Shown here one piece after another: positions 4,311-29,294 of a stretch of 35,920 nucleotides of DNA. Source of the stretch: Psammoneis japonica (Eukaryota); contig QPGO01000379.1 of assembly GCA_008632985.1 (NCBI GenBank), positions 1-35,920 of the forward strand. Reading direction: 5' to 3'. The notes below the pieces were generated by a model. The model was not told where the DNA came from. It saw only the letters and a list, made by a program, of their open reading frames with translations, and ran no database searches. Within the stretch, counting starts at the first letter, position 1; every line of letters starts with the position of its first letter. The translations under genes and the position numbers were made by a program.

Positions 4311-4609
4311 CTTTCCGGTGAACAGACAGCAAGTTGTGTGCCGTTCGTGGCGAGACTTGTACCGAAGCTTACAGCAGCTTGCGTAAGTAGGATACATACG
4401 GGATGCGTCGTGGAATACATTGACCATTGACCCGCGAACCGAACACTGCCAGCACGCATGATCAGGTTGAGCGAGAATAACACACACTCAATGTGAGAGC
4501 ATGCCAAACAAGCAAACAGACAGCACGACTGAGAAAAGAAGGACAAAAATAAAACGATCATGATGCAAGATGCAAGCATGATGGAGATTTTTCGACCACA
4601 GCTGGTTTA

Positions 4610-5585
4610 ACAGGGTCCCCCCTTGTTCATCCAAAAATTACCGTGACATTTGAATAAAGCTGTTTGCTGAGTGATGATTTTTGAACACAAAAACGTTCAC
4701 ACATTTGCCCAAAAACGCCCACACATTTGCCCTGGATCGCACACGAAAACCAGAGCATCGAGGAGGTGCTCTCTCAATCAAGGAGGAAAAGGAGCATGAA
4801 CAGCTGCAGCCATCAACACATTTCTCAAAATTGCAGTCTGCCAGCAACACACTCTCACCTGACACACTGACCATGCAATGCGCGGCGAGCATGGCGGCAC
4901 CAATCGAGAGGGCTGTGCCTCTGTGTGCCTGTCTGTCACAAACTTGTGGTCACAAACTTGTGGCTTTTGGTTTTCACCACAGTGTGGAGCACAGTGAAAT
5001 AAAAAATCAGGCAAATCATGAGCTGTTTGTTGGCCAAATTCAAGCAGAAAAAAGCAGCAGCAACTGGCCGCCCCCTTGACCATGCTTCTGTTCTGAGATC
5101 TTGCAATGACTTGCCAGGTTTTCATTCATGACAGGCCTGCCAGGCTGGATTGCTCAATCAATGGCAAGCAGAGAGCCCTTGTGATGCCATCGGGGTTGCT
5201 GTGCTGTGCTGTGTGTGGCAGGGTGCATGCGCCGGCACTCTCTGGGCGCTTGCCTGCTTTTGTGTGGTTTGCACGTTGTTGAGCAAGGTGCACAAAAAAG
5301 GGCACTTGCCCCTGGAAACAGCTTTTGTTTCTTCAGTGCTGTCATCATCATCACAACAATGACCGTGCCTGGATCATCGTGCCTGTGCTGCCCTCGCCCC
5401 CACAGCCATCTTTTGCGCCTTTCTTCATCATTCTTGTGCCTGACTGCGGTCTGCAGCATCTCTCTTTTTCAGACAAGTGTCAGTCTTAAAGGCAAGATTA
5501 GGGTTGTCAGTTGGGCCTCAGAATGATTGAAGAGGTGATGTTGTGCAAATACAGAGTGTTGTTGTTATGATCATTGTGTTTTCTC
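4610..5585. other. TpA/CpG-depleted island; decayed repeat or gene fragment of unknown origin
   Basis: Only one TA (5000-5001) seen between ~4657 and ~5486. CA/TG is strongly enriched and the ORFs are Cys/His-rich and Tyr-free. Boundaries are approximate. Confidence 0.7.
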
Positions 5586-10996: not shown

Positions 10997-12380
10997 GATG
11001 TGATTCAGCAAGTGACAATGGTTTAATGGCGTATTGTGCGTTTGGTCTGTTGGGTTTCCGACAGTGAAGATTTGATCTCGCGCACGTGTGCGCGGTTATT
11101 AGACTGTGTAGGCGTGTGTGCGTGTGTGAGGTGTAAGTAGAATATACGTAGAATTACTACTGATGAGTTGACAGGCGGTGGATTTTCCGCCGGTACACAA
11201 TCTACGCGGTCTACATGGAACATAAATTTATGTAGGTCTCTTAGGGTTTTACATATCATTGAAATTTCTTGGACCTTGAGGAGATACATACCCAAATTCA
11301 AAAAAGTGAGGAACACCCCGAAACACATTTTAGAGGATGAATAAAAATTATTTCTATATAACGGTCCGAACAGGGTCGCCCCGAAGCGCTTCTCAAAATA
11401 TCTAGAGATTGTATATAGTAAAACATCTACTATTAGCAAAACAGAGTCACTATCGGATAAATAGATCCCGTGTTCTTCGCGCGCAAACAACACGATAACG
11501 CACAACAACACCATGGCGAGAAACGCGAACGCCGTCCCCTCATCTACAAGCTGGGAATACGAGATACTATTGAAGTGGTTGGACAGTGTGTATGCGCTTT
11601 ATTCATGGGTCAAGTTGGGTTTCTTCTCGCTGCTTGTTGTTGCGTCATTTTACAACGTTTTGACCCACGCCGTGTTCTTTGCTTTGTTGCTTCTGCTCGC
11701 GCGCCACCAACAGCTTTTCCTGCAGGGTATGGCCAGTTGCACGGCTGCATCGAACCCAAACGTGCGCGACCAACTAGCCATACCCCGGCTAACTCATATT
11801 GGTCACAATATCTGGAGGGTCGGATTCCATCACTTTTTTTGATGTGTCCAAAACCATCATTGGCACACTCTCGCTAGAGGTGCGTCACAAAACACTGCCG
11901 AAGCGGGTCGAGAGTTGCGTTCAGCAATAGTCACTCTTGTATGTCAGCTCCGGCCGTAGCAGAAAAGTTCATTGCCATGCAACAGTGCACAAAAACTTTC
12001 TGCTGCAGGTATCTCTCTAGCTGGAGATACCACCGGTACGGAAGTTCGCTTGAAACATAGAAGCGAGAAGAGCCAAAAAATGATGACGGATAGACGCAAA
12101 AACAGAATCGAAAATCCCGCCCGCGGTTACCGGAATCCGCCGGTTATGCTTTTGCTTGCTTTACCCGGCTATGGCCAAGACCCAAAAGAATTCAATGATT
12201 CAAACTCACATCATAGCAGAAAGCCCTGTCAGAACCTTTGTCGGCATTTGTCTTTGCCTACAGTACCATAGCTTTTTTATCGTTTTAGCAGAGCGGAGAA
12301 CAAAACTTTCAAACAGCTATGCATTATGCATCATTCCAAGTTCCATACTAGGCCTAGATTCACTACATCCGCATTAAAGC

Positions 12381-13868
12381 CTAACGACCCAGAAAACGGT
12401 CATACAAAGAACGAGATTCAGCGTCAGTTTCATCGTCAAAGTCTTCTGGATTGCTTTCGTCTGTTTCGTAATATGGATCCTCCCAAGCCTCGCCTTCTAC
12501 CAAATCTTGACTCTCGGCGACAAGCGCTGCTTCTTCCTTGGGATCGATGGGTTTCGGAAGCTCCGCTTCGAGCATGCGCCTGCTCATCCTCCATGTGAAT
12601 GTTACATAGTGCAAAACACTCAAGTCTTCCACATCGCTGCCGTACGGATCACTCATTTTCTGTCCAAGTATTCGAAGACCAATGATGAAGATGCAGTTCA
12701 AGAACACAATGAGACCAGAAAGAATGTCGTTCAACCAATGTGCTTCATCGCCACTACCAGCATTGAGAGCAGCAGAGATGGCAAACAAAGGGAGGTAGAT
12801 CGCCGTGAGTAGGCAGATAAAGTGAAGGTAGAAGAAGCTGACCGGTTGGTCGTCCATGTCATACATCACTTTCAGTGACTCGCGAAGCTTGAGGACGACA
12901 CCAAATAGCAAGCCTCTCTGACGATTATCAATCAATTTTGCTTCAAAGGCCGTAATTACTTCGGCCAAGCACCATGTGACAAGTTCTCGATAGGCCGAAC
13001 CACCCATATTTACGTCTATCTTTCGCAAACGATCCATCTCCGCTTCCGTAAGTACTCGGTTAGCCTTGTTGAATTCTACAAAGAAATTGTTGAATGTGTA
13101 GGTGGAAGACAGGCCTACATACCCTGCAACATGCTGATAAGAAAAAAAGAATACAGTATTAGCCACCTCGAGGAAGAGCCTTGACCAGCCGAATCAATGC
13201 ATCAGTAAACCCAAAGTACATATTACCAAGGCATTCATGTAGCGGATGAAACGAAAGGCATTATCTCTCGGCATGATTGTCTTCGCGATGCCCGCTCCAT
13301 CTAAGATACGTCCTTCACAGGACATTGAGTGACCATAGAGTGAATCAAACCTCTTGTTGCAGGAAACAACAAAGAATACTGTAAACAGAAAAACAACACA
13401 ATCCGCGTTTAGCTTCTAGCCCAAATGGAAGGCGATTGAACCACAATACAAGGCAAAAATATACAGCGTACCCAAAAAGAAGATGAGAAAACCTCCAATG
13501 CTTGCAATGTCTGCACCGCCTAGTTCAGAGAAGAACTCAGGTAGCCCACCGAGCCTTGCTCCAAGCCGGACGCCGACGTAGAGTATCATGCAAATCCACA
13601 TGAGTGGATCGTGAAATAATGCATTTAGAACGGTGCCGTCCCAGAAGCAGAGAATGCGAAAGAACGGAAGCTCTGTTCGTTCCAGAATTGCACGTCGACG
13701 GCGCTCGATGCGGCACAGTTCCTCCCACGACAGCTCATCGTCGCTGCCTACTAAGAGTTTCGTAACCGTGCTCTTCAACGCCTTAGAGGCGGATCTCGAT
13801 GCGGATCTTGATGCGGGTTTCGATGCGGTTTCCGAGGAGGACTTCGAGGTGGATTTCGAGGCGTTCAT
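12381..13868 (-). CDS. Bestrophin-like anion channel
   Basis: PVSFFYLHFICLL and LGQKMSDPYGSDVEDLSVLHYV (bestrophin DPxGxD motif), plus N-terminal FWDGTVL and transmembrane segments. Two introns at ~13381-13469 and ~13135-13225. Confidence 0.8.
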
Positions 13869-14520
13869 GATAGATGCTGCGACTCGTAGCCCTATGTGAA
13901 GACTTGGGAACGAATTGTTGGTTGGACGAAGGATGGAATACCTAAATTATTGATAGAAACAAACTCCAAGGCACATCCGGTGCGATAATACTATGCACGG
14001 GAAAACAAAATGCAAAAAAACTTGAAAAAAATAATAAAAAGCGAGAGAAGATCGATGTCAGCTGCCTCGCGTCACCTTCAACCAGGCAAACCTTCAACAA
14101 GGGACGTGCGTAGCGTGCCGTCCGGTGGGTGTCGTCCAAGGACATACGGTAGTTATATCCTTGATACGGCACGGGTGGTCACCTTCCATGTCGGACTTGA
14201 TTTTAATTTTTGAGTAGCGGCAGATTCTACGGTATGATGTGGTGCAGCAAAAACGACGTCTCTCTGCCCATCCGTGTTTGAATGTCAACTTCTCGGGAAA
14301 TCTGATCAAAGGCGTTGCTCTTCACCATGTGAGTCAAAATGACTGTGATCAGACGACGTTTCAGTTGAGTTCCTACAAAATCATTGGCTTCAGCCACCCT
14401 TTTGCATGACATTTTGCACATTTGCACATGATTTGGTGCATTTTTCCTCATGCAAAATGTTGGTTGTGACTCTCGCGACATTTTTGAGCGAGACTTCTGT
14501 TGTGGTGACGGGTGAGCCAC

Positions 14521-14900
14521 AAACAAAAATGAGCAAGACCATGATGGCAAGAGGCGGTGGTGGCGGCAGTGCAAGAAGCACAAGTCTGTATCTGCCAAGT
14601 GCTGCACAGCATTCCAGCATGAGCCACCCGCCCACAACAAGGTGAAACAGCCAGAGCAAAAAAGGCTCTGTCTGCACTCGAGTTTGCCGTGCTGCTGTGC
14701 TTGCCTGTTGGCTGCTGGTGCCACCCAATCTTGCTGTTTTGTGTGATGGTCAAGAAGGTGTTGGCCCCTCCTTCTGAAAAAGATCCAGCTCATTTCTTGC
14801 AGCTCATCAATGACAGCCCCTGTGTGCCAAGGGAATTTTTTGAGCACAAAAACCCAGCAACAAATGGCAGCACAACAAAAATGAGGCAAGCTCTCCTCTG
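14521..14900 (+). pseudogene. Decayed copy 1 of the 5' end of the GT14 gene (24073-24420)
   Basis: Colinear similarity, e.g. aaacaaaaatgagcaagaccatgatgg vs aaataaaacgagcgaaaccatgatgg. Residual peptide KKVLAPPSEKDPAHFLQLINDSPC matches KKVSVPPSEKDPVHLTLINDSPC. Confidence 0.9.
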
Positions 14901-15646
14901 TTGAGCTGAAATGCCAGCCTGTTTTTTGAACCAGCTCACATGCATCATGGCGCAGCTGGCAAAATGATCTGCAAAACACAACATGCTGTTGCGAGCCAAA
15001 ACACCACCGCCGCCCCTCTCATGTTTCTGCTGCATGGCATTGTCCCCCACAATTGAAGCTCACAAGACTGCCAACTTGGCACTGAGAACTCTGTTGCCTG
15101 TTGTCTGCATTTTGTCTGCTGGAAGCACAAATCTGTGTCTGCTGAGTGCTGCACAGCATTGCAGCATGAGTCATCCCACAAGATGAAACAGCCAGAGCTT
15201 GCCGCGCTGCTGCTGTGCTTGCCTGTTGGCTGCTGGTGCCACCTGATTTTGCTGTTTTGTGATGGCCAAGAAGGTGTCAGCCCCTCCTTTTGAAAAAGAC
15301 TCAGCTCATTTTTCCCCGCTCATCAATGACAGCCCCTGTGTGCCAAGGGAACTTTTTGATTTTTTAGCAAAAAACCCAGCAAATGGCAGCACAACAAAAA
15401 TGAGGCAAGCTCTCCTCTGTTGAGCTGAAATTTCAGCTGTTTTTTGAACCAGCTCACATGCACTGTGATGCAGCTGGCAAAACAACCTGCAAAACACAAC
15501 ATGCTGTTGTGAGCCAAAACAGCACCACCATCACCCCTCATGTTTCTACACGGCAATGCCCCCCACACACACAATTGATGCCCACCATGAGACTGCTGGC
15601 TCAGCACTGAGGACTCTGTTGCTTGTTGTCTGCATTTTGTCTGCTG
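14575..15646 (+). repeat. Tandem duplication, two units of ~530-545 bp (14575-15120 and 15121-15646); unit 2 carries decayed copy 2 of the GT14 5' end
   Basis: Both units start gaagcacaa.tctgt.tctgc, share aaaaatgaggcaagctctcctctgttgagctgaaat and end ttgtctgcattttgtctgct. Confidence 0.9.
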
Positions 15647-15758
15647 CTCCCCCCAGCCAACCTCTTTTGGCTTTGTTGTGCCCAACCGCAAAAAAGCGTG
15701 TGATTTTCCTGTGGTGAAATCCTGGAATTTTGCATCTGACAATTGCAGGCAAAAAAAA

Positions 15759-15850
15759 CAGCAGCAGCAGCAGCAGCAGCAGCAGCTGGGTGATGGTTGT
15801 CATTTCAAACCATTCTGTGTGTGTGTGAGTGTGTGGGTGGGTGGGTGGGT
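15759..15850. repeat. Microsatellites (CAG)9, (TG)n and (GGGT)n
   Basis: Seen directly: cag x9 at 15759-15785, and tgtg.../gggt repeats at 15815-15850. Confidence 0.9.
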
Positions 15851-17039
15851 TGTCAAAACAAGGCAGATGTTTGCTGCAGCAAGGAGCACATCTAAAAAAT
15901 GATGCCATCAGCAAGTTTTTGTCCACTCAGTGCCCACGCCAACATGTTTTGGGGGTGTTGCACCAGCATCATGTTTGCTCCACACAGGGCCTCACCCACC
16001 CCCTGAAATTCACTTGAGTCAAACATTGGACTGACCAACAATGTGGCTGAGTCACAGGACTTTGAAAAAGTGGATGCACACATTTCCAGCCCATCCACCT
16101 AAAATCAGCTGCTGCTGCTGTCATGCTGCGCACCTTCTGGTGCTTTTCCAATGACAAGCAATGAGCGCACAAATTGAACAATCATCAAAAGTGAAAGTGG
16201 TGCTTGTCTCTACAATGCTTGTTTCAAAGATGATCATCTTGATGCCACCAACAACCCCCATCCTGTGACTCACATGTGTGATGGACCTGCGGTGCTGTTG
16301 TGAGAAAATTGGGTGTGTTGATTTGCAGCTGTGCATCTTGTGGTGCAGTGTCATGTTTTGATGGTTTTGCCTGTTGCCTGCCCTTGTCTTGCTCAGAGTT
16401 GTTTGTTTCATCTCATGTTCTGGTGGGTCAAGATGCCAATGTTCCATTGTTCACACTGCTGGTGCCATGTGAGTGACATGCTGCTGGATTGAGCTCAACC
16501 TGAGTGACCAGCATTGTCGGTCAATCTGGGGTGCATCAGGAACTGCTTCTCATTGATTGTGCATGACAGCTGGACTTGAAACCTGACAAAAACACCTGGA
16601 TTGGCTTGCACATGACAATTTGGACTGATGTTGGGTGCCTGGTTCATTTGGTCATGTGTCTCCATGCAGTTGAGGGCAATCTTGTTGTTGGGTCCATTGG
16701 AGCTGCTTTTGCATCATCATTTGTGCATGATGGTCAGACTTGGAAACTGACAAAAATGCCTGGATGTTCAACTTGTTTGGCCGTGTGTGCTCTTGGAGTT
16801 GAGGAGCATGATCAATCTTGCCCTCACCCTCATTTTTGGCAGCCAAGGCACTGGAGCTGACCTCATGCTGCTTTTGCATCATTTGCACATGATGGCTTTG
16901 CTTGGAACTCAACTGGCTCTTGTGCAACAATTTTGGACTGTTGCAGTGTGTTTGATCTGTTTGGTTGTGCACCCTTGCACAGTTGAGTGTCATTTTTCTC
17001 ACGACCCTGGCCCTCATTGCTGGGCGTGCTGGAGCCACT

Positions 17040-17200
17040 TTTGCATCAATTGCAGCATTGTAAAATCGTTGACTTCCTCCCAACAATTGAGGATTGCAAC
17101 CGTCGATTGCACCAGGCTTTGCAGCAATCGAAAGATTGCAATTGCAAAGTGATTGCCACGTGCAACAATCGATTGCAATTGCAACAGCGATTGGCCCCTG
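17040..17200. repeat. Cluster of GATTGCA/TGCAATC motifs, probable hAT subterminal repeats (also at 20220-20300 and 23567)
   Basis: gattgcaac, gattgcaattgcaa and caatcgattgcaattgcaac flank the transposase on both sides. Exact TIRs were not resolved. Confidence 0.55.
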
Positions 17201-17419
17201 CAAGAGTGCCCACTGCGCAGGTGATGGTGCTGCAGGCAAGATTTTTTTGCGATTGAACTGCGTTGCATCTGCTTTTTTGAATGCATCTGACCTGCGTTGT
17301 CAAGGCAAACTGTCAAAAAACATGCTGTTGCTTGCTTGTTGTTTGATGTTTGAAGCTGCAAGGATGCTGATTCCATGATCACTCTTCTGGGTTGATGTTG
17401 TTCTTTGCAATTGTCATCC

Positions 17420-19985
17420 CGCACTGTTGCAATTTCTTCACATGATCCCTGCAATGCGTTCACATGTGCACCATGAATGATTCATTCACACGGAGAATTG
17501 CCAACATTCTGAGTTCCTTCTCATCAAGCAAAGTGTTCCCGTCATGCAATGCCAGCTGTGCAATCGAGCTGATTCACTCGGCACAGCTTTCTGCATTCAG
17601 TGCTCCAATCTGACCACGAGACGAGCCGGCCACAACAGGGAGAAAACCACGCATCTTCCAATTCTTGTCACTCAACTCAAGTTTCTTGCACAGTTTTCCA
17701 ATGTCCAACTTCATGACATCCTGGATCAAGTCTGGCGAATCTGCCAGAATGTCACAAGAAGGGTGCTCTTTGTGCCACTCAATTTCCTTTCGACTCCACC
17801 ATTTGAGTGCTTTTTTGAATTCCTTTGATGCCTTTTCCTTGTCTTCAGTGACCAAAGTGGACTCAATTGGCTCTTCATTGTCCTCTTCACTGTCAGAGGA
17901 GCCAGACTCCTCTCCCCTGAGCTGCCAAGGAAAGACAAGTCCACGGTGTTGTTGATGCTGTGTGATGAGCCGCTGCCCTTGCTCTTGGCACCTTCTTGTT
18001 CAGTCTTGCATCTCTTTGCTGCTTTTGCACTGTTTGATTTCAAATCATCATTCCCAGCAGCCTCATTTGCATGTTTCTTGGCTTTCTTGTTCTTCTGTTC
18101 CTCAGCTCTCTTCTTCCAATTGGCTTGATGCTGGTGCTTGCCGTGTTGCACACAGAACTTGACATGCTTTTTTTACAAACATTTCACGGCACGTTCTTGC
18201 ACATCTTGGGAAAGCACAGAGGTGCACCTTGCAGTGTGAAGATCAAGGAGAAGAGCCAGCAGCTGTCGGTTGTTGAGTGCAATTTTGCCCGGCTCTGAGA
18301 GTCGCTCATTGGTGGTGTTGCCCAAGAATCGCCGCTCAAATTCTGTGATCGCCCTTTCTCAGCACGTGGCTCCTGCAGAAGAGAATGAGGCAAGCTCTTG
18401 CTCACATCATGGCAGATTTTTGTCTTTGCCAACCTTCTCTGGCACGACCATCGACAACTCACTGCTCGTCAATGCATCACACATCATTTTCTGAATTAGC
18501 GGGCCACACGCACTGCAGCACAGAGCATCGCATGCTGTGCCATTTTGGCAAGAACTTGTGTCACTTGGAGCACCACCTCAAATTGCTGCCACAAGGCATC
18601 AGTGAGAATGAAGGCATCCTTGTTGCTGTTGTGGAAGTGAGCAACGCCTCGTTGCACATGAAGGAGCCAGTTCAATGGCTGGTGCCCTGCATCAATCCTT
18701 GTGCCGTTGATGTCCAGTTTGGGTCTGAGGGCGGCAATGCCAGCTTCCTTGCACGCCATTTCCAACTGGGAAAAGCGCTTGTCAAATCGGAAGCACTTTG
18801 CTGCAGATTTTGCTTTGTCCATCACAGCCGCTCCATCCTCGAATGGATCAACTTTAACCTTGTTTTTAGAGCGTGCCAATGCCCCCACTGCAGACTGTCC
18901 TGTCTTGTCTCCGTCATGCACATCACATGCTTCAGTGTCTTCAATTTCAACAAACTGCCGTGACACTCCAAGGGCGGCACTGTCTGATGCCATCAAAGCA
19001 ACAGCTTCCTCCATCGTCAAGTTGCATTGATCGACGAGAGCATGTCTCGAAGTGGCTCGGCAACCTTGTCATCAGCATTGTGTTGTGAATGCTCAAACCC
19101 AAGACAAATCACTGTGTTTTCAATCCACCTTGGATCAATGAACTGCATGCCAGCTGATTGACATTTCTTGCCATTTGCAAGAGTGACTCCATCATGAATG
19201 ACTTGGGCATGGGACAAACCAAAACTCTGCTGCTGTTTCTTGAGCTTAAACATGATCATGGCAAACCGAGTGAAAACTGTAAATTCCACCGACACACATT
19301 GTTTGAGTTTGCATTGCAACAGAGCAGGTGCATTTGGATCTCCGCTGGCTTGACATTTCATCATCTGAACAAAATGCTTGTCCGCAAAGGTGCGACAGGA
19401 GATTGCTTGCTCAGAACATGCACGCCACTGGGCTTGAGATGACAATCTCATTTCATCTTCAGATGGCTCAAACCCTTTCAGTGGATTTTTTACATGCACC
19501 TGAGCATCATCTTTTTCACTGGCCACCACAGCAAAATCCAACTGCTGTTGCTTTTTCATGCTTTGCAAAATCACGATTTTTTTCGCTTCATTCGCGCGGT
19601 CGTCGGGGTGGATGTCCTTCATGTGCTTGATGGCTTTAGAAGCAGTGCAGCAGTGTTTGTCCTTGGGCTTCACCAGCTTCACAAATCATTGGGGACAATC
19701 AGGGAGAGTGCGTGCATGCATGTGTCCCTCTTTTGACTTGGGGTGATCTGACGCCAAGCGAAGCACATGATCCCACACGGGTGACTTGGTCCCTCATTTG
19801 CCAGGGCTGTTTGCTCTTGTTTTGAATGAAGGATCATTTTCCCAAGGAGCAACCTGTGCATTGTCTCCCTGCACACCTTTTTCCAAGTCGTCCACCTTCT
19901 CCTCTACATTTGACCCCGTGTCCACCAATTTCTCACCATCGCTGCCTTCCGACACGTCCATCACATTGTCTGCAGCCACGCTCAT
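17420..19985 (-). mobile_element. Degenerate hAT-superfamily transposase (stops and frameshifts)
   Basis: BED-finger remnant (HACTL...TASKAIKHMKDIH), first catalytic Asp region (QVIHDGVTL), ASDSAA, CxxH (ACDVHDGDK), NGTRI, and a C-terminal dimerisation region (QIGALNAESCAE*ISS...LRVNESFM). Confidence 0.85.
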
Positions 19986-20321
19986 TGCATTCTTCAAAAA
20001 AGAAACCAAATGACCAGATGAAAATGGCACATCAATCGGTCATTGCTCCAAAATTATGAGACCTCATTGAGACTTTTCATTTGTTTTCGGGCATGTCGTC
20101 CAAAATTCACCCTTGATCTGTTGTTCTTGTTTCTCGCGCTTGGTTCTTGTCAGTCCCGTGTTTGCCTCATTGATCAGAAAATGTCCTGGACTCACGACTA
20201 AATTTCACTCATGACTTGACTGCAATCGATCACAAACATGATTGCAATCCTTGTGTCCATGTGATGCAAACAATCAGCAGATTGCAGTCATTTCGATTGC
20301 GGTCCGCAACCGAGTTGTGCA

Positions 20322-23300
20322 ACTCAGAATGCTGCACACTGCCTGACGAGCACGGGAGGTTCTCAACAACCCAAGAGGCAAAGAAATTGCCACTCGGCCA
20401 ATTGTTGAGTCGCTTCTCCGCACACACATTTGGGCATGTGTTGTGCACAGCATCATCACACAGCATTTGTCCAACTCTCCCTCTCGTCGCAGGATGGGTC
20501 ATTGCCATGTGGCGCATCCGCACGGCGGACTTACGAAATTTTGACCATGCACTCCCTCTGGTGGGCAGGATGGGTCAGGCACATGTCCGGTCACGTAGGT
20601 GGCTCCAAGTTTGTGAAAAAAAGAAGAGGAAAAGGAGGAGGAGGAGAGAGGGAGAGATTCATTCGTGCCGCAGTGGGGCATGCACGACGCCCAGACGATT
20701 GGCGCTTCCGATGCATGTGGCTGCTGGGCAGTCGCAGCTCTCTAGCCAGTGAAGACTCCAATGACAGCAACATGCCATGATCCATCTAAATGCATCATCT
20801 GCTGCTTCATTGCTCACAGAAAATTTACACGCACACTGCCAACGCTGCCGTTGAGATGCGCAGCTGCCGATGAGCCAGAACTCCATCACTTTTGAAAGCC
20901 GGCTCCACCTCATTTCCTCTCTGGCAGACCCAACTAGATGCAAAAAGATCCACAATCTGATTCCCTAAAGGAACAACTGTTGTCAAAGGACTTGAGTCGT
21001 GCAGAGCATTGGCATGGAAAGGCCACTTTAAGCGCTCGCAGTCCCAGATGTCCATGCTGAAAAAATGACAGGCAAAATGAAAACATGAGTGGAACAACAT
21101 GCACAGTGACAATTCATTGGAGCAACATGTCACAGTGTGCTCACTGGGGCACCTTTTAGAGGCAGAGCTGAGTCGCCTTGCCAATTTTTATGCCCCCAAG
21201 TGCCATCAGTGGTTCGTGGCATCCGCACATTCAAGAGGAGGCGATGAGCCTGCCAACACAAGCCTCAACCTCCCCATTTTACACATTGTCAAGCCTGGAG
21301 TCGTAGTTGCACCATCAAGATCTCCCAAAATGATGCGGACGACATCATGTCTTGCATGTTGATGATGATGCGGTTGAAGGGCAGGTGGAAAGGATCACTT
21401 TAGACCAGACACCTGCACGCATGAACGAGGCGCACAAAAAATGCTCGTGAGGCATGCAAGTTTCTTCAAAACGAGTCAAACACTCAAACAATTACAACAC
21501 ACTCGTGGGATTACCTTTTTTGGACTGTGACAAGACTGTCTGACAATTGCCATCATCGCAAGTGTCCTCCAGGCTCCATCGCATCATTTTGTTCCTACGG
21601 CATGCACTTTCCAAAAATTGTGATGGCTGAAACACAACATGCCGTGATTGTGTGCCGACCAAGCCCCCAAGAAGGATGTCAAGCAAGTCACAAATCCACA
21701 TCAATGTACACAATGGGTGCACCAAAGGATGTAGAGTGGGGTGAAGCATAAAGATCCCAAACAGGTGTGCTTTGGCGGCACCAACAACTTGAAAAACATG
21801 CCAACATCACAGATGCAACAATCGCCCACATGAGATGATCAATCCACCTTGTGAGCTGAAACAAAAAACAACAATGATCTTTGGCAAATGGGAAAACGAA
21901 ATAAAATTAAAAACACGCACAAAGAACTCACCTCGGCGACGTTGTCGACCATTCAGATGTTGCCCGCAGCATGCAGCAATTGAGGCACGAGTCGATGCAC
22001 GCAACCGTTTGCACCGTGTGTCGCAACCAAAGCCCCCCAGGGAACCAAGTCAGTGTGTCAAATTTTTTACAACAGCAACAGAAAGAGATCACACATGGAA
22101 AACACGTCTGCCCCATGATGTTTGCCATGCCGAGACACATCAAAGTGCAATGTGCATGGCCATTTCTTGCGGTGCGATGTGCCAAATTGGGATCATTTGA
22201 GTGGAATGAAGGAAATGAAGAGGATTCCCTCTTTCGTGTCGTTGTGCAACTTGCACCAGATTGGACCGTTCCTTTCTGCTTGTCGTCACAGAAATGGAAC
22301 TGTGTTGTCATGGGATTCTGCGCAAGTTCCAGTGCATTTCCCACACAGTTCATGAAGAGCCACCTACGCAGCTGGACGATTGCCATGGGTTAGCACCATG
22401 TGGCGCATCCGGCCATGCCAAGCCAAGGGAGGAGTGGGTTTGAAGCCCAACCGCCCACCCCGGATGGGGTTGGAAAGGGGCAGGCCGAGAAAGAAAAGGA
22501 GGCTTGGATTTGAGGCCGACTCGAACGAGCGACCTCAGGAAGCGTAAAGACTCATGACCACTCAGAATGCTGTACACTGCTGCTGGTGCCCAACAAGTGC
22601 GGGCGGTTCTCAACAACCCAAGAGGCAAGAAATTGCCACTCGGCCAATTGTTGAGTCCCTTCTCCGCACACACATTTAGGCATGTGTTGTGCACAGCATC
22701 ATCACACAGCATTTGTCCAACTCTCCCTCTCGTCGCAGGATGGGTTGTCACCATGTGGCGCATCAGCACGGCGGACTTACGAAATTTTGACCATGCACTC
22801 CCTCTGTTGAGCAGGATGGGTTAGCGCCATGTGGCGCATCTGGCCAAGGGAGGAGTGGGTTCGAAGCCCAACCGCCCACCCCGGATGGGGTTGAAAAGGG
22901 GCAGGCCGAGAAAGAAAAGGAGGCTTGGATTTGAGGCCGATTCGAACCAGCAACCTCAGGAAGCGTAAAGACTCACAACCACTCAGAATGCTGCACACTG
23001 CCTGACGAGCACTGGAGGTTCTCAACAACCCAAGAGGCAAAGAAATTGCCACTCGGCTGATTGTTGAGCCCCTTCTCCGCACACACATTTGGGCATGTGT
23101 TGTGCACAGCATCATCACACAGCATTTGTCCAACTCTCCCTCTTGTTGCAGGATGGGTTGTCGCCATGTGGCGCATCCGCACGGCGGACTTACGAAATTT
23201 TGACCGTGCACTCCCTCTGATGGGCAGGATGGGTTGGCACCATGTGGTGCACCCGGCCAAGGGAGGAGTGGGTTCGAAGCCCAACCTCCCACCCCGGATG

Positions 23301-23556
23301 GGGTTGGAAAGGGGCAGGCCGAGAAAGAAAAGGAGGCTTGGATTTGAGGCCGATTCGAACCAGCAACCTCAGGAAGCGCAAAGACTCACAACCACTCAGA
23401 GTGCTGCACACTGCTGCCGGCACCTGACGAGTGCGGGCGGTTCTCAACAACCCAAGAGGCAAGAAATTGCCACTCGGCCAATTGTTGAGTCCCTTCTCTG
23501 CACACACATTTGGGCATGTGTTGTGCACAGCATCATCACACAGCATTTGTCCAACT
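20322..23556 (-). mobile_element. Tandem TRIM-like non-autonomous LTR retroelement: 4 LTRs and 3 internal segments
   Basis: LTRs at 20322-20476, 22560-22722, 22981-23135 and 23394-23556 (155/163/155/163 bp). 5-bp TSD GTGCA at 20317-20321 and 23557-23561. On the minus strand a PPT (GAGAGGGAG) precedes the LTRs and a PBS-like GGT(TG/CA)TGAGTC follows them. Confidence 0.85.
20578..22384. mobile_element. 1.8-kb TIR DNA element (non-autonomous; GG termini with 8-bp TSD, Merlin/IS1595- or MULE-like) nested in the TRIM
   Basis: 28-bp TIRs ggcacatgtccggtcacgtaggtggctc (20578-20605) and gagccacctacgcagctggacgattgcc (22357-22384) match at 21/28. TSD is ATGGGTCA (20570-20577) / ATGGGTTA (22385-22392). 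Removing the element restores a full TRIM unit. Confidence 0.85.
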
Positions 23557-23639
23557 GTGCAAACAGGATTGCAGTTTGTTGAGTCGTCAGCGATTTTGTG
23601 ATGCTGGTCAATTGTCGTGTGTGGTGTCTCACCCTGGAA

Positions 23640-23735
23640 TGGCTTTTGTGCAACTGCGTTGGCTCATGTGCAACAATTTTTGACTGTCATTGTGTGTTTG
23701 GTCTGTTTGGTTGTCCCCGCCCTTGCAGCTGTGAG
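23640..23735 (+). repeat. Dispersed direct repeat of ~16890-16985
   Basis: ggctcatgtgcaacaatttttgactgtcattgtgtgtttggtctgtttggttgt vs ggctcttgtgcaacaattttggactgttgcagtgtgtttgatctgtttggttgt. Confidence 0.75.
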
Positions 23736-24091
23736 CCAGAGCTCGAAGCTGTTGTTGGGTGGCTTGAAAGCGAGGAGACAAGACGTGGAGCTCTTCTGAG
23801 GCGTGTGGCTTCCACTTGCATTCCAGTCCAGTCATGTGCCATGCAACATAAGCAAGGAATGTTCAGCTCTACCACATGGCAGCTCATCGCAATGTTCTGC
23901 CTGCAGCTCTGCTTTGGCTGTTCACATGGCCGGGAGGATGTCGCGATGCGCCATGCTTTGCGACGCACATGCAGACGTGCGCGTTTTATCCCTTGCGATT
24001 TTTTTTGCGGGCGGACGACGGCGGACGCGCAATGACGAGACGACATACAGACATACAGCAACATACAATAGGAAATAAAACGAGCGAAACC

Positions 24092-27000
24092 ATGATGGAA
24101 GGCGACGGCAACGGTGTAAGAAGTACGTCTATGTCTACAGAATACAGTACAGTGTTTCAGCATAAGCATAAGTTATCCTATGAGATGAAACAGTCAGGGC
24201 GCAAAAGTATTCCGTCGTTGTTTGCGTTCAAGTTTGTCATTGCTCTGCTTGCCTGTTGGTTGCTGCCATCCAATCTCCTTGTTGTGACGGCCAAGAAGGT
24301 ATCAGTTCCTCCTTCTGAAAAGGATCCGGTTCACTTGACACTTATCAATGACAGTCCCTGTATGCTGGAAGTGTTTTGGGTGAATCCCGCCAATGGCGAC
24401 ACGACAAAAATGAGCTCTCCTCGGTTGGAGCCCGGAGGTTCGTTGCCTCTGAATTCCTACGAGGGACACAAGTTTGAAGTACACAATGTGCTGAGCAAAT
24501 GCTGTGGCTCGACAAAGGATAACTGTAATCGAATGAATAGCTTTGTCATGACGTCTCAACCGAAACAAGTGATGCGTGTCAAGGATGGACTCGAGTTTGT
24601 TCTGGAAGAAGGCCATGACGGCGGAGATGGCTCTACTCTAGTTCGAAAGACGGAAGCCAATGGTCTGACACGGCATGCCAGGACAAATCAAAGGACTTTG
24701 GTGAACTTACATGACTTGGATCTGGAGGCGAATAAAGAATTAGACTTGGGAGTGGACGATCCAGCAGAGGCTGCGAGACAAGTCATGAACCGCATTGGAG
24801 CCACTGTGAGTTAGTCAATGCCTCTTTTATGTTGTGTACAAGCTGCAACATTGCTGTTTTCTCTCACATATTACTACTTTTTCGTTTTCTAGTTGCACAA
24901 GCGAATGACTAAGGTGTTTGAAAAGGCTAAGACAAGGGAGTGTCGCGCATTGATTGGTGAGCACTTTGGATATTTTGTCAATGCTCTTGGGACGGAACAC
25001 AGCATTCCATTTGCCGACGTTTCGTTTGAAAACCAATGCAATGAAACCAAATATGACCTTGATAACTTGCCGGAAGGCATGCATTTTGGGCATATTCAAA
25101 ACAGAACATACCAGCCACCGCGAGATGAGGCTGAATACATTGACGACCCGGCCAACCTCAAGCTGTGCTATGCTGTATTGACGCACGACGATGCGGCTGC
25201 GACTATTCGATTGATTGAAGCACTGTACGAAGAGGGCCACGTGTTTGTTGTGCATGTGGATGGCAAGGAGAGCAGTGATGAGGTACAAGAGACACTTACA
25301 AAGTACGCCGCTTCGAGGGATCATGTTCACGTTTTGCAGCAACCATATCGAGTGCGAGTCAACTGGGGCGGATTTTCTATGGTGAATGCCACCTTACAAG
25401 CTTTTAAATACGCTTTTGCAGTTGATCAGGCGCATTCGGAGCCACTTGATTTCCACAAGATGGTACACATTGCGGCATCATCGTATCCAATCGCATCTAA
25501 TACTGAGATTCGGAGGCGCATTGCGTCATACCCTCTCGATGCCAATATGATGAACGTAATTATGAAACCGAGCAAGATCCACCCGCACAATTGGCATTAC
25601 TTTGTAGAATGCGATGACGCCGTGCATAGAATCTATCGGCTCGAGCCCATGACTGAGAAACAGGGAAGCATTGATCTCTACACATCCAGTCAGTGGTTCA
25701 TTTTTAGTCGAGAGTTTACTAAGTACATTGCCGAGGCACGCCCGGGGACCCTAGTCCACGACTATCTCGAGTACGTTCAGCATGTCGTCGTTGCGGATGA
25801 GACCTTTTTCGGTACTGTTTTGAGGAATACTCCATTCTGTCACAAGCACCACAACACGAACTTTTTGCATCTTCAATTCGACAGGTAAGTTTCGTGGCAC
25901 TTCCGTGAACGAAGGCTTTTTTAGAATTGCCTCACGCTTTCCCTGTTCTCCTTTGTCAGGTGGGAAAGTGAGTTGGAGCAAGGGAAGCGAGATGAAAGGA
26001 AATGCCTTATGCCTTCACCAGACCATTGCGGGAGATCACCAACGACAATGACAGTGGACTACATTGATGTTTTGGAGCTCTCGGAAGACCTCTTTGCACG
26101 AAAGTTCTCTGATTCAGCCGACTCAAAAATCAAGGACTATCTTGACATACATCGAGCAAAAGAAGAAGAACAACTGAAATCGGGAACAGATCTACCTTTG
26201 AATGTGAAGGGACCGGAGAGTGGCTTCACAGAGCACGGCGTGATGATCTTGGCCAAAGAAACGGTACAGAACGACAAGCCCCTATGCCTTGGACTCGGAG
26301 ACACCGGAAACAAGGTAGGAACAGGCCTCTACGTGTTTCCTTTATTTGGCTTTTTGCTTTTGGCTGATTTGCCTTGCGCTTTTTTCTACAGCTTCGACTT
26401 GTGCCTTGCTTTCACTCCTGGGTACCAAACACACTTGCGCCAGGCTGGGAAACTGGTGCCGTCATTGAAGAAGAAACACTGCTGCATAATCGCTGGGAGA
26501 TTGGTCCGTGTAGTTCGGATGGATCTCTTGAACGAACGTGAGTCTTGAATGCATGTGTCCTGTTATGGGTTCTCGTAGTCTTTCTTAAATCTATCTTTTT
26601 TCCTTCTTTGTCATAGCCCAACTGGTGAAATGAATATGACCGAGGGAATCTTTAGCCCAATAGGACCACGGTGTATGCTCAAGCAGGTGGATGGAATGCG
26701 TGCTGGCAGGTGCTTGGACGGCGAATCAGAGCGGACACAACCTGGAGGTGACTTGCAAGTCTTCCCGTGCATTCGACGTTGGCATCAATTTGTATCGTTC
26801 GGCAACGGTAACATTACGCCTGCCGGAAGTATGCACACCACAATCCCACGGTACATTGTGAAGAGGATAGTAGAAAGCGGGAAAGATCAGGAACCGTACT
26901 TGTGCCTTGGGGTGCATGGCAGGGGAGACCGTGACGAGGAAGAGTGGGAAGAAGACAAAAAGAAGAACCTAGGAAATAAAAAGTCGAAACCCGTGACAAC

Positions 27001-27184
27001 AAAGGCCGCGGACGAGTTGCCACCCCTAAGCGAATGGGAGGGGGAGCAAGTCGTGACAACGAGGTGTTCTAACGTCGATGCGGTGATAGAATGGTTGTAT
27101 GTGCCGTATATTTTGGAGGAGGAAGACATCGAGGAAAGCCCCAGCGATGCAACGAGCACAGTAGACGAGGACAAGGAGCTCTGA
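24092..27184 (+). CDS. GT14 family glycosyltransferase (core-2/I-branching enzyme / xylosyltransferase-like) with an N-terminal VHL-beta-like domain and possible C-terminal ricin-type lectin repeats
   Basis: CYAVLTH, FVVHVDGK, VNWGGFSMVNATL, SYPI, SSQWFIFSREF, ADETFFGTVLRN and LFARKF. Hydrophobic signal/anchor, and C-terminus ends DKEL. Introns at ~24807-24891, 25885-25959, 26314-26391 and 26538-26616. Confidence 0.88.
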
Positions 27185-27307
27185 TTATTTGGGAGCCTTT
27201 CTCCCTGTTTGCAAATAGTAAAACGGAGAAAGGTAGCAACTGTAAACTATCTAGAGTAAACACTGCTGGTATCAATTGTATTTGAACCACTCAAAAGACA
27301 GCAACCC

Positions 27308-29294
27308 TTACCGAAGTGAGCGAGCGCCCGCTTTTTTCATCCACGCACCGACGATTTGAAAGTTAGAGTCTCCGACTCGGCAGTGGCCGTCTAAAAACTC
27401 ATCACTCAGTTGTGCACAACCCCAAATGTGAACTTTGGTCAAGTTTGGTGTCTTGGATACGAGATATCCCATTCCTTTATCGGTAACGTTTGGGCAAAAG
27501 CTGACATCCAACTCTTTTAACGACGAGGCCGAAGAGGCGGCCAAGCACTCCATTGTATCGTCTGTGCATGATGACCCGTTGATGCCAACATGCACAAGTC
27601 CACCTATCGAGGACACTGCTCCGCTTTGCGCCCTTGCACCGTTGCGGTTCCCTGAAGACGCCTTTGAAACGAGATCCATGACTTGATCAGTAACGGCATC
27701 AAAGGCGCATCCTGTCAAATGCAAGGTTCGAAGCTATGGGAAACGAAACGAAAGTCAGAACATCAAACGAATGAAAGACTGGGAGCTGTGGCTATATAGT
27801 ACTCTAGGTCTTACCATTGGTGGACTCGGTAAGCCAGAGATGCCGTGAGTAAAGAGAGCCTCAAGACCCGCAGCCGTAAGGTTCTTGAGCCCGCAGAGGT
27901 GCAGACTTCTGAGTCCACCGCTTTCGTTGGAGCGCCGAATACCAGAAAGGATCTCGTCAGTAAGACTGTAGTTGTCGCTGAAATCGATTGCTTCCAGATT
28001 GTCTCCTACAGAGTCTAGAATCTTTAAGACAACTTCGTCGTCGACCACCGGGATTTGCCTTAAACCCAGACTTTTTAGATTCCGTAACGCGTCTGACGAG
28101 CATAATCCAATGAGACTCTCTTTGGCAAGAACCAAGTCTTCCAGATTTAGTTCCAACAGGCAATTGTTGCTGGGCGATGCAAAACTCTGGTTAAGAGCAT
28201 TGCAAAAGCTGCTTCCAAGAAGAGGACACGCCTTGAACTCCAAAGAGGAGAGGCTCGACGCTGTAGCAGAGATGAAGGATGCTGCATCATCATCTTTTAG
28301 CAAGTAAGCTCCTCCAATAGATACCGCATAAAGCATGGACTGTTCTTTCGAGAGAGAAACGATTTCCTTGACAGCTTTTGGGCCAAAACATCGCCCAGAG
28401 TGGTTGAGCACCAGAAAACGCAATCCTGCAGGAATAAGAGACTTTAGAGAGCTAGTAAGCAGTTCTTGACTGATTTCTGAGCAGTCGATCAACTCTAATG
28501 TCTGAAAACAAGAACGGGGGTGGCAGTATGAATGAATGTGAGGAAAAGAACACATAGCAACATCTTCAAGTGCAGAAGCATCGTACCTCGATACCAGCTT
28601 CGGCGATTGCTTGGAACGCAGCAGCATCCAACTTGTTCTTAGCTACCAATTCCTTACATACTGCTCTGCGGATCGCGCTGTCGACATTTCCCAGTGCCTC
28701 AACGTACTCGAAATTCTTCACCACAAAATCAAGACAAATCTTGAACAACGAAGGGATCTTGTCGAGATCCCGAGATTGCGCTTGCTGTCTCTTTTGCCTC
28801 TTTGAATAGAGATTCGCAGAAACGTCATGATCGTCTGAAAACTTTGCACGCCACTGAAGTGACGGATGAGCCTTGCGTTTCTTCTCCAGTTCGACTTGCA
28901 TCATAACGTCGTCCAGAGGATGATGAGGCTCATTTTTCTCCTCTTGCTCTTCCTCCCGCTGACGCCGCGCTTCTTCTCGCTTGGCAATCATTTGACGTGC
29001 CACGCTAAAAGGACCACACCATTCTGTCTCTTCGTTGTTTGTCTCTTCGGATGCCGAAATCTTGGCGTGGTATCCAAACGGTGTACTAGCCACGGCACTC
29101 TTTTTACGAGAAGCGTGAGAAAGTTTGGTGGTTCCCGCTCGTTTCTCTGGACGAGCTAAACGAGACGCCTCGCGTTCCGCCACGGCACGGTTACGCTCAC
29201 GCATAGCAGCGGGTAGCCTCGCCCTCTCGTCATCGTCTTCGTCGCTACCATTGTCGGCGGCAAGTCTTGAGCGGGTGCTGCGACGACGAGCCAT
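27308..29294 (-). CDS. Rad7/Rhp7-like leucine-rich-repeat protein
   Basis: WCGPFSVA and IPSLFKICLDFVVKNFEYVEALGNV, followed by cysteine-containing LRRs (LDVSFCPNVTD, VHIWGCAQLSD). Introns at ~28503-28586 and ~27734-27814. Confidence 0.78.

Follow-up and report, generated by a model that had tools for sequence, protein, structure and literature searches.

Evidence for in situ TpA to TpG/CpA hypermutation of mobile DNA in the diatom Psammoneis japonica

The closest described system is that of the chlorarachniophyte Bigelowiella natans, for which a recent preprint (Mettrop et al., bioRxiv 10.64898/2026.01.13.699255) reports 231 mutations in integrated viral DNA, nearly all of them TpA>TpG/CpA, with integrated NCLDV and virophage DNA as the target. 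The same text describes a de novo rate raised about 1000-fold and active in some lines only, as well as an enrichment of transposon domains among TpA-poor coding sequences; ADAT2 is proposed there as a candidate enzyme, and diatoms, LTRs and target sites do not come up in that preprint. The process that we describe here in the diatom Psammoneis japonica appears to work like this system, by likeness of signature rather than of enzyme. Both consist of A>G and T>C transitions that fall almost only at TpA, on both strands of nuclear DNA, and both are confined to foreign or mobile DNA, here across the window and the loci fetched. They differ in host and in the substrate described, which in the diatom comprises transposons of the LTR and DNA types along with repeats and pieces of duplicated genes, and in extent, as TA loss is near complete here (rho 0.01–0.18) whereas the B. 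natans viral region stands at 0.45. Nucleation, spreading and a TAY preference are further features that set the diatom apart from that account, and whilst de novo rates were measured in lines of B. natans, the data presented here are standing variation only.

Fungal RIP is RID/DNMT4-dependent and premeiotic. With RIP and RIP-like TCG hypermutation, as described in two papers (PMC12730594, PMC9998398), the present process shares dinucleotide-specific transitions that are confined to repeats, chromosomal and found on both strands; RIP, however, is a C>T change that creates TA, whereas the process here is A:T>G:C and destroys it. Two LTRs that belong to the same element and started out identical are mutated to different degrees here, a disparity for which pairing by itself would not account. 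On the mutation of both duplicate copies, which is typical of RIP, the observations give a mixed picture: one LTR is often spared, and dead gene copies are hit while the live gene is not. A likeness also exists to TadA/ADAT, ADAR and TadA-derived editors in the A>G outcome, the 5′ T preference and a 3′ C preference like YAC (PMC7056309, in part), although the natural substrates of TadA/ADAT and ADAR are RNA, the editors need single-stranded DNA, and they accept CA, which here is hit 40 times less than TA. Finally, CpG decay at DNMT5-methylated diatom transposons (PMC9998398, in part) likewise converts a palindromic dinucleotide to TG/CA in silenced elements and is also present here, lagging far behind TA loss. 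No report of TpA hypermutation in diatoms was found in the literature searched.

The insertion site and its transposon family

The window analysed is a stretch of 35 920 nt (contig QPGO01000379.1, forward strand), and all positions below refer to it unless another contig is named. It contains a TA-depleted, non-autonomous TIR element of 1807 bp (20578–22384, + strand) that lies in the first unit of a 413-bp tandem repeat array (20322–23556, +), itself a member of a dispersed family with at least 124 genome matches. Directly before the left TIR (20578–20605, +) is one 8-bp target-site duplication (TSD) copy, ATGGGTCA (20570–20577, +), and directly after the right TIR (22357–22384, − strand) is the other, ATGGGTTA (22385–22392, +). 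The duplication length is fixed at 8 bp by the empty site, which reads ATGGGTTA in unit 2 of the array (22816–22823, +) and ATGGGTTG, with a TA>TG change, in unit 3 (23229–23236, +). Thus, as the initial annotation had described, the two TSD copies differ as TA versus CA, and TA, CA and TG all occur at one homologous position. The transposon entered a 413-bp repeat and duplicated ATGGGTTA, and the left copy most probably became ATGGGTCA later, as one instance of a TpA to TpG/CpA process that operates in the mobile-element domains of this diatom.

A second contig (C182), which is 97.6 % identical to the window over 17 kb (11943–29288) and is probably the other haplotype, carries the same two TSD versions at its copy of the element. 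The change from TA to CA is therefore older than the split between the two copies, and a consensus error at the mismatch is unlikely. To speak of a duplication caught mid-mutation, as had been done, was accordingly an overstatement, as both copies have the change. The context of the site, T-TA-G, is also the slowest (0.29 mutated versus up to 0.78 elsewhere), which accounts for the survival of TA both in the right TSD and in an empty site. Moreover, the tandem units differ from one another at 21–25 substituted columns of about 430 (about 5 %), so that one mismatch in an 8-bp pair is expected roughly one time in three; taken alone, the single TSD mismatch is not significant and is weak evidence.

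The element retains 20–21 TA steps, compared with 95–97 in two TA-rich copies (L003 and L006). Its TIRs are only 75 % complementary, differing at 7 of 28 positions. Relative to TA-rich copies the left TIR has lost TA at positions 5–6 and 23–24, and relative to copy L083 the right TIR carries two TA>TG changes. The reciprocal CA/TG difference between the TIRs that had been pointed out does exist, but it fails as evidence of mutation in situ: CA at positions 15–16 of the left TIR is family-fixed, being present in 38/38 left ends scored, TA-rich copies included, and only the right TIR changed at that step, where TA is kept in 1 of 15 right ends by one scoring and in 4 of 27 by another. Insertion does not render TIRs identical, and in this family they differ natively; the argument was therefore dropped.

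TSDs were surveyed at 15 loci of the family with both ends read, alleles being counted once. Two loci (C4 and C65) had no recognisable TSD. Among the remaining 13, five pairs were identical, none of which contains TA, and three differed solely at a TA step, namely the window locus, C432 (GTAAAATG/GCAAAATG) and C355 (CATGTTTC/CACATTTC, a true reciprocal pair); a further two differed only at a CpG step (C80, C193) and three were mixed (C31, C12, C97), and these last five count against the proposed process. The identical 8-bp pairs at other loci, together with the imperfect 28-bp TIRs, are features of a cut-and-paste DNA transposon. An 8-bp TSD with TIRs is characteristic of hAT or Merlin transposons. 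A genome search for an IS1595/Merlin transposase gave no match, and a 5.6-kb candidate for the autonomous partner contained no transposase frame, leaving no autonomous partner found.

Several other features of these repeats were observed. At three loci (L029, L070 and L077, on C187, C6 and C80) the TIR element occurs in head-to-tail tandems with 6–7-bp spacers and one outer 8-bp TSD. A different, mostly TA-rich and near-identical family (L016–L030) shares 1.2 kb of the element interior (query 372–1573) without its TIRs, and some of its copies are unmutated though inside depleted islands. One short-read contig (run X1) joins 20297 to 23558 and omits the whole 413-bp array, so that the array itself looks like an insertion; other 413-bp arrays were seen, several of them within a few kb of Copia reverse transcriptase (RT) matches. 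Decayed minus-strand frames at 17570–19990 resemble, by their motifs, a hAT-type transposase with a zinc finger; a Pfam search of these frames gave no match.

TA-depleted islands and pairs of once-identical sequence

The insertion site lies within a TA-depleted repeat island at approximately 14400–24000, in which the TA observed/expected ratio is 0.01–0.18 across 1.5-kb bins from 15001 to 24000, compared with 0.50–0.68 in window bins clear of islands; a second, small depleted patch is found at 4500–5400. Immediately beyond the large island is an intact host gene (24073–25885, +) whose second frame matches the Pfam Branch glycosyltransferase family and whose GT..AG intron (24806–24892) is skipped in one contig. 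Inside the island (14522–15422, +) lie two dead copies that correspond to the 5′ portion of this gene at 24.1 kb, and they keep 0 of 27 aligned TA steps, 21 of which now read TG or CA, and 1 of 25 CG steps. The direction of change is therefore from TA to CA/TG, TA being present in the intact gene and lost from the dead copies, which also agree with mutation in chromosomal DNA. Across this window and the loci fetched for comparison, TA loss is confined to mobile DNA and host genes are spared.

Other comparisons bear on the same polarity and specificity. Between TA-rich and depleted members of the TIR family, T[A] differs at 0.38 per strand and other A contexts at 0.04–0.14. A Copia copy with identical LTRs is TA-rich, and TA-rich copies have TA at the host level, not elevated. 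A result that runs counter is that, where the window island, which is saturated, is compared with C182, only 12 of 114 isolated differences belong to the TA class and 74 to the CpG class. Frames at RT matches are very long (up to 2279 aa) and their internal stops are mostly TGA, both of which are expected once TAA and TAG have been erased; such long open frames in TA-erased elements can mislead gene prediction.

The two LTRs of one element provide an internal control. For the LTR survey we took 40 of the 150 Copia RT matches listed, picked for long frames, so that the set leans young, and 39 of these had an LTR pair. Over 10 002 aligned columns there were 291 isolated mismatches: 126 TA/CA, 116 TA/TG, 34 of the CpG class, 10 other transitions and five transversions. 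TA versus CA/TG thus makes up 242/291, as against an expected TA-class share of transitions of 0.235 (24 %), with no strand imbalance (126 versus 116; p 0.56). A further 88 columns were adjacent mismatches, about 68 of which are TG versus CA by our count. As about 83 % of isolated LTR differences stem from the TA process, LTR-pair dating and transposon annotation are distorted here.

Copia target sites gave a concordant result. A 5-bp TSD was recognised in 34 of 37 elements from four families, and 32 of these 34 pairs were identical; the two that were not hold three substitutions, all at TA steps (3/3). In 12 further copies, seven TSDs were identical and without TA, and the rest except one were unmatched or cut off; the exception shows a C/A difference, but only one of its flanks is common to another copy. 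Copies on different contigs that share one flank and not the other were also seen among L133, L136 and L138, L135 and L142, and L115 and L116, which may reflect either ectopic recombination between copies or misassembly. The initial annotation had anticipated that mismatches counted by dinucleotide class in TSD and LTR pairs would be enriched for TA versus CA/TG, and this is what the 242/291 LTR mismatches and all three Copia TSD substitutions bear out. Its central proposal, of chromosomal mutation in situ after insertion and not through RNA editing or reverse transcription, is upheld, on evidence that it did not have, by the LTR pairs, by the TSD surveys, by the dead gene copies and by the independent outcomes in sister copies given below. 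We put the probability of DNA-level, in situ TpA>TpG/CpA hypermutation of chromosomal DNA in mobile-element domains at about 95 %.

Behaviour of the process across Copia copies

The course of TA loss was followed in a single Copia family, using 19 copies that a DNA search had recovered. Loss sets in at a distance of 0.5–1.5 kb from the 5′ end, extends both ways and reaches 85–100 %, usually sparing the 3′ LTR, whilst in three other Copia families the LTR that is hit is usually the 3′ one. That 3′ sparing might be a selection artefact of the RT search was considered and rejected, as it persists in copies found by DNA search. The process is set by position and not by sequence alone, because within a pair of identical LTRs one is rewritten and the other left alone. 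In copies L110–L126 we also observed that, within the first 1 kb past the 5′ LTR, most copies retain a TA-dense stretch (26–39 TA per 500 nt), the remainder being depleted. Young TA-rich copies persist, so that transposition has not been brought to a halt by the process.

In eight young, heavily hit copies the rate of T[A]>G was 0.393, compared with 0.010 for A[A], 0.009 for C[A] and 0.004 for G[A]. The corresponding rate of [C]G>T was 0.024, rising to 0.154 in three older copies. The TA process therefore outpaces CpG decay more than 10-fold, and TA saturates before CpG decays. After the A, the next base is preferred in the order C (0.34), T (0.29), G (0.22) and A (0.14), i.e. TAY is favoured.

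Over the 19 copies the products were 1037 TG, 835 CA and nine CG, the last being double products (9/1881). The sense-strand excess of TG matches what the +1 context model gives (0.544 versus 0.554). Neighbouring hits fell on the same strand in 849 of 1662 cases, against a permutation mean of 837.5, and strand-coordinated runs, as from processive single-strand action, were sought in these copies and not found. At the sites that they share, sister copies show the same product in a median of 61 % of cases. Hits thus fall site by site, on either strand independently, and end at a site once its TA is gone.

Mechanism, competing explanations and significance

As to mechanism, we lean, by a modest margin over even odds, towards adenine deamination at TpA by an enzyme held at silenced chromatin. 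A host adenine deaminase of the TadA/ADAT or ADAR fold would be retained there and would turn the adenine in TpA into hypoxanthine, to be fixed as G by replication; over many divisions this conversion would degrade transposons. The 3′ C preference here is reminiscent of the YAC motif favoured by the first TadA-derived editors (PMC7056309), a likeness that may point to an enzyme of this kind. The absence of strand-coordinated runs counts against deamination, since such runs are the expected trace of a deaminase that acts processively on single strands. The genome has candidate genes for a TadA-like (C38), an ADAT2-like (C26), an ADAT1-like and a second ADAR-like deaminase. This last is a second A_deamin gene, distinct from the ADAT1-like one (L182:972–2685; contig C79, 344.2–345.9 kb); its best solved match is an ADAR catalytic domain, no dsRNA-binding domain was seen in the frames read, an atlas search with its exon gave no usable match, and its family has relatives across diatoms, whilst ADAR has been described as metazoan-only (PMC3239186). 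The presence of such genes is no evidence in itself, as TadA/ADAT is universal and the ADAR-like family diatom-wide, and by sequence the C79 gene is a lead only, one putative candidate. A novel deaminase was looked for among PF00383 and PF14437 matches and none was found; by our reading these look like dCMP deaminase, TadA, ADAT2, guanine deaminase-like and RibD proteins.

The strongest competitor, which we regard as unlikely yet worth serious attention, keeps the same in situ process but changes its chemistry: a symmetric mark at TpA in silenced DNA, on T or on A, would decay or miscode as 5mCpG does to TG/CA. As TpA is a palindrome, a changed A and a changed T are indistinguishable from sequence. 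The distributive, strand-independent hits and the rarity of double products (9/1881) mirror CpG decay; the genome has 27 C5-methyltransferase matches, and diatoms carry a RID-related DNMT4 of unknown function (PMC9998398, in part). Near-saturation of TA loss at about 3–4 % total divergence, on the other hand, would need very fast decay, and a TET/JBP search of the genome was without match, a weak point as no control genome gave a match either. We know of no TpA-specific base mark.

The TSD mismatch might instead be an ordinary transition, such as CA>TA in the right copy, or an exchange with another tandem unit, and so uninformative by itself. The one-in-three chance of a mismatch at this divergence leaves room for this, and the array supplies conversion donors, with CA found at this site in other loci too. 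Against it, TA is the reading at the right TSD, at unit 2 and at one C286 unit, and in young copies TA>CA/TG occurs, per site, about 200 times as often as CA>TA (0.393 versus 0.002); we consider it improbable. Polymerase eta leaves a WA>WG signature, known from somatic hypermutation. Its error-prone repair around deaminated 5mC would fit A:T>G:C transitions in DNA that is also losing CpG; this explanation is largely refuted, and now quite improbable, as hits on AA are 40 times rarer than those on TA (0.010 versus 0.393), transversions are almost absent and TA saturates while CpG is nearly intact.

An artefact of assembly or of base calling at modified bases in repeats is less probable still. 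The TSD bases are not among the best 40 of 253 short-read contig matches, and the copies sharing a single flank (those listed above) look recombined or misassembled. Short-read contigs nevertheless reproduce the depleted DNA with 0–4 differences per 280–800 nt, a match that checks the method and is not a second sample, as run X1 may be the source sample itself; the mismatch is present on two contigs, and young elements present in multiple copies are rich in TA. Editing of element RNA from A to I, made permanent by reverse transcription, to which the slight sense-strand TG excess (1037 versus 835) and an ADAR-like gene might lend support, is refuted because LTR-pair and TSD mismatches arise after integration, and it is further opposed by the +1-context prediction of that excess, by the equal hits on both strands of LTR pairs and by the effect on a DNA transposon and gene copies, so that we give it very little credence. 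RIP of the fungal type, in which the direction would be opposite to the one proposed and the TA-rich copies would be the mutated ones (CA/TG>TA), involves the same three dinucleotides and could draw on the RID-related DNMT4 reported in diatoms (PMC9998398, in part), but is refuted by polarity, given the intact gene that retains TA, its dead copies that lose it, the TA-rich copy with identical LTRs and the host-level TA of TA-rich copies, and is likewise highly improbable.

All named relatives of one gene of this genome are diatoms. With regard to distribution, no support for the process in other diatoms emerged: of 73 Copia loci from metagenomes, none shows TA loss at the level of the islands (rho 0.36–0.90) in a search that favours intact copies, the lowest values, 0.36 and 0.39, comparing with 0.30 for a mutated copy here. 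Tyrosine-poor Copia proteins numbered 0/120 and 2/120 in two sets from relatives, again by searches that favour intact copies.

In situ TpA hypermutation, as documented here, demonstrates, by internal controls, that a eukaryote changes A:T into G:C within transposons on its own chromosomes, in chemical terms the reverse of RIP, and extends the 2026 single-species report from B. natans to a second SAR lineage and to transposons. It also adds constraints on the enzyme, which would be distributive, act on both strands, prefer TAY, spread in a position-dependent manner and work independently of CpG loss; a natural double-strand adenine editor, if true, would matter for genome editing. More tentatively, and with the odds somewhat against so specific a picture, either a naturally occurring editor of adenine in double-stranded chromosomal DNA or a novel base mark at TpA may be recruited to a nucleation site in transposons and spread through silenced chromatin, as a reverse-RIP defence of diatoms, or of this lineage, that would be shared in kind with Bigelowiella and is possibly ancient in SAR.
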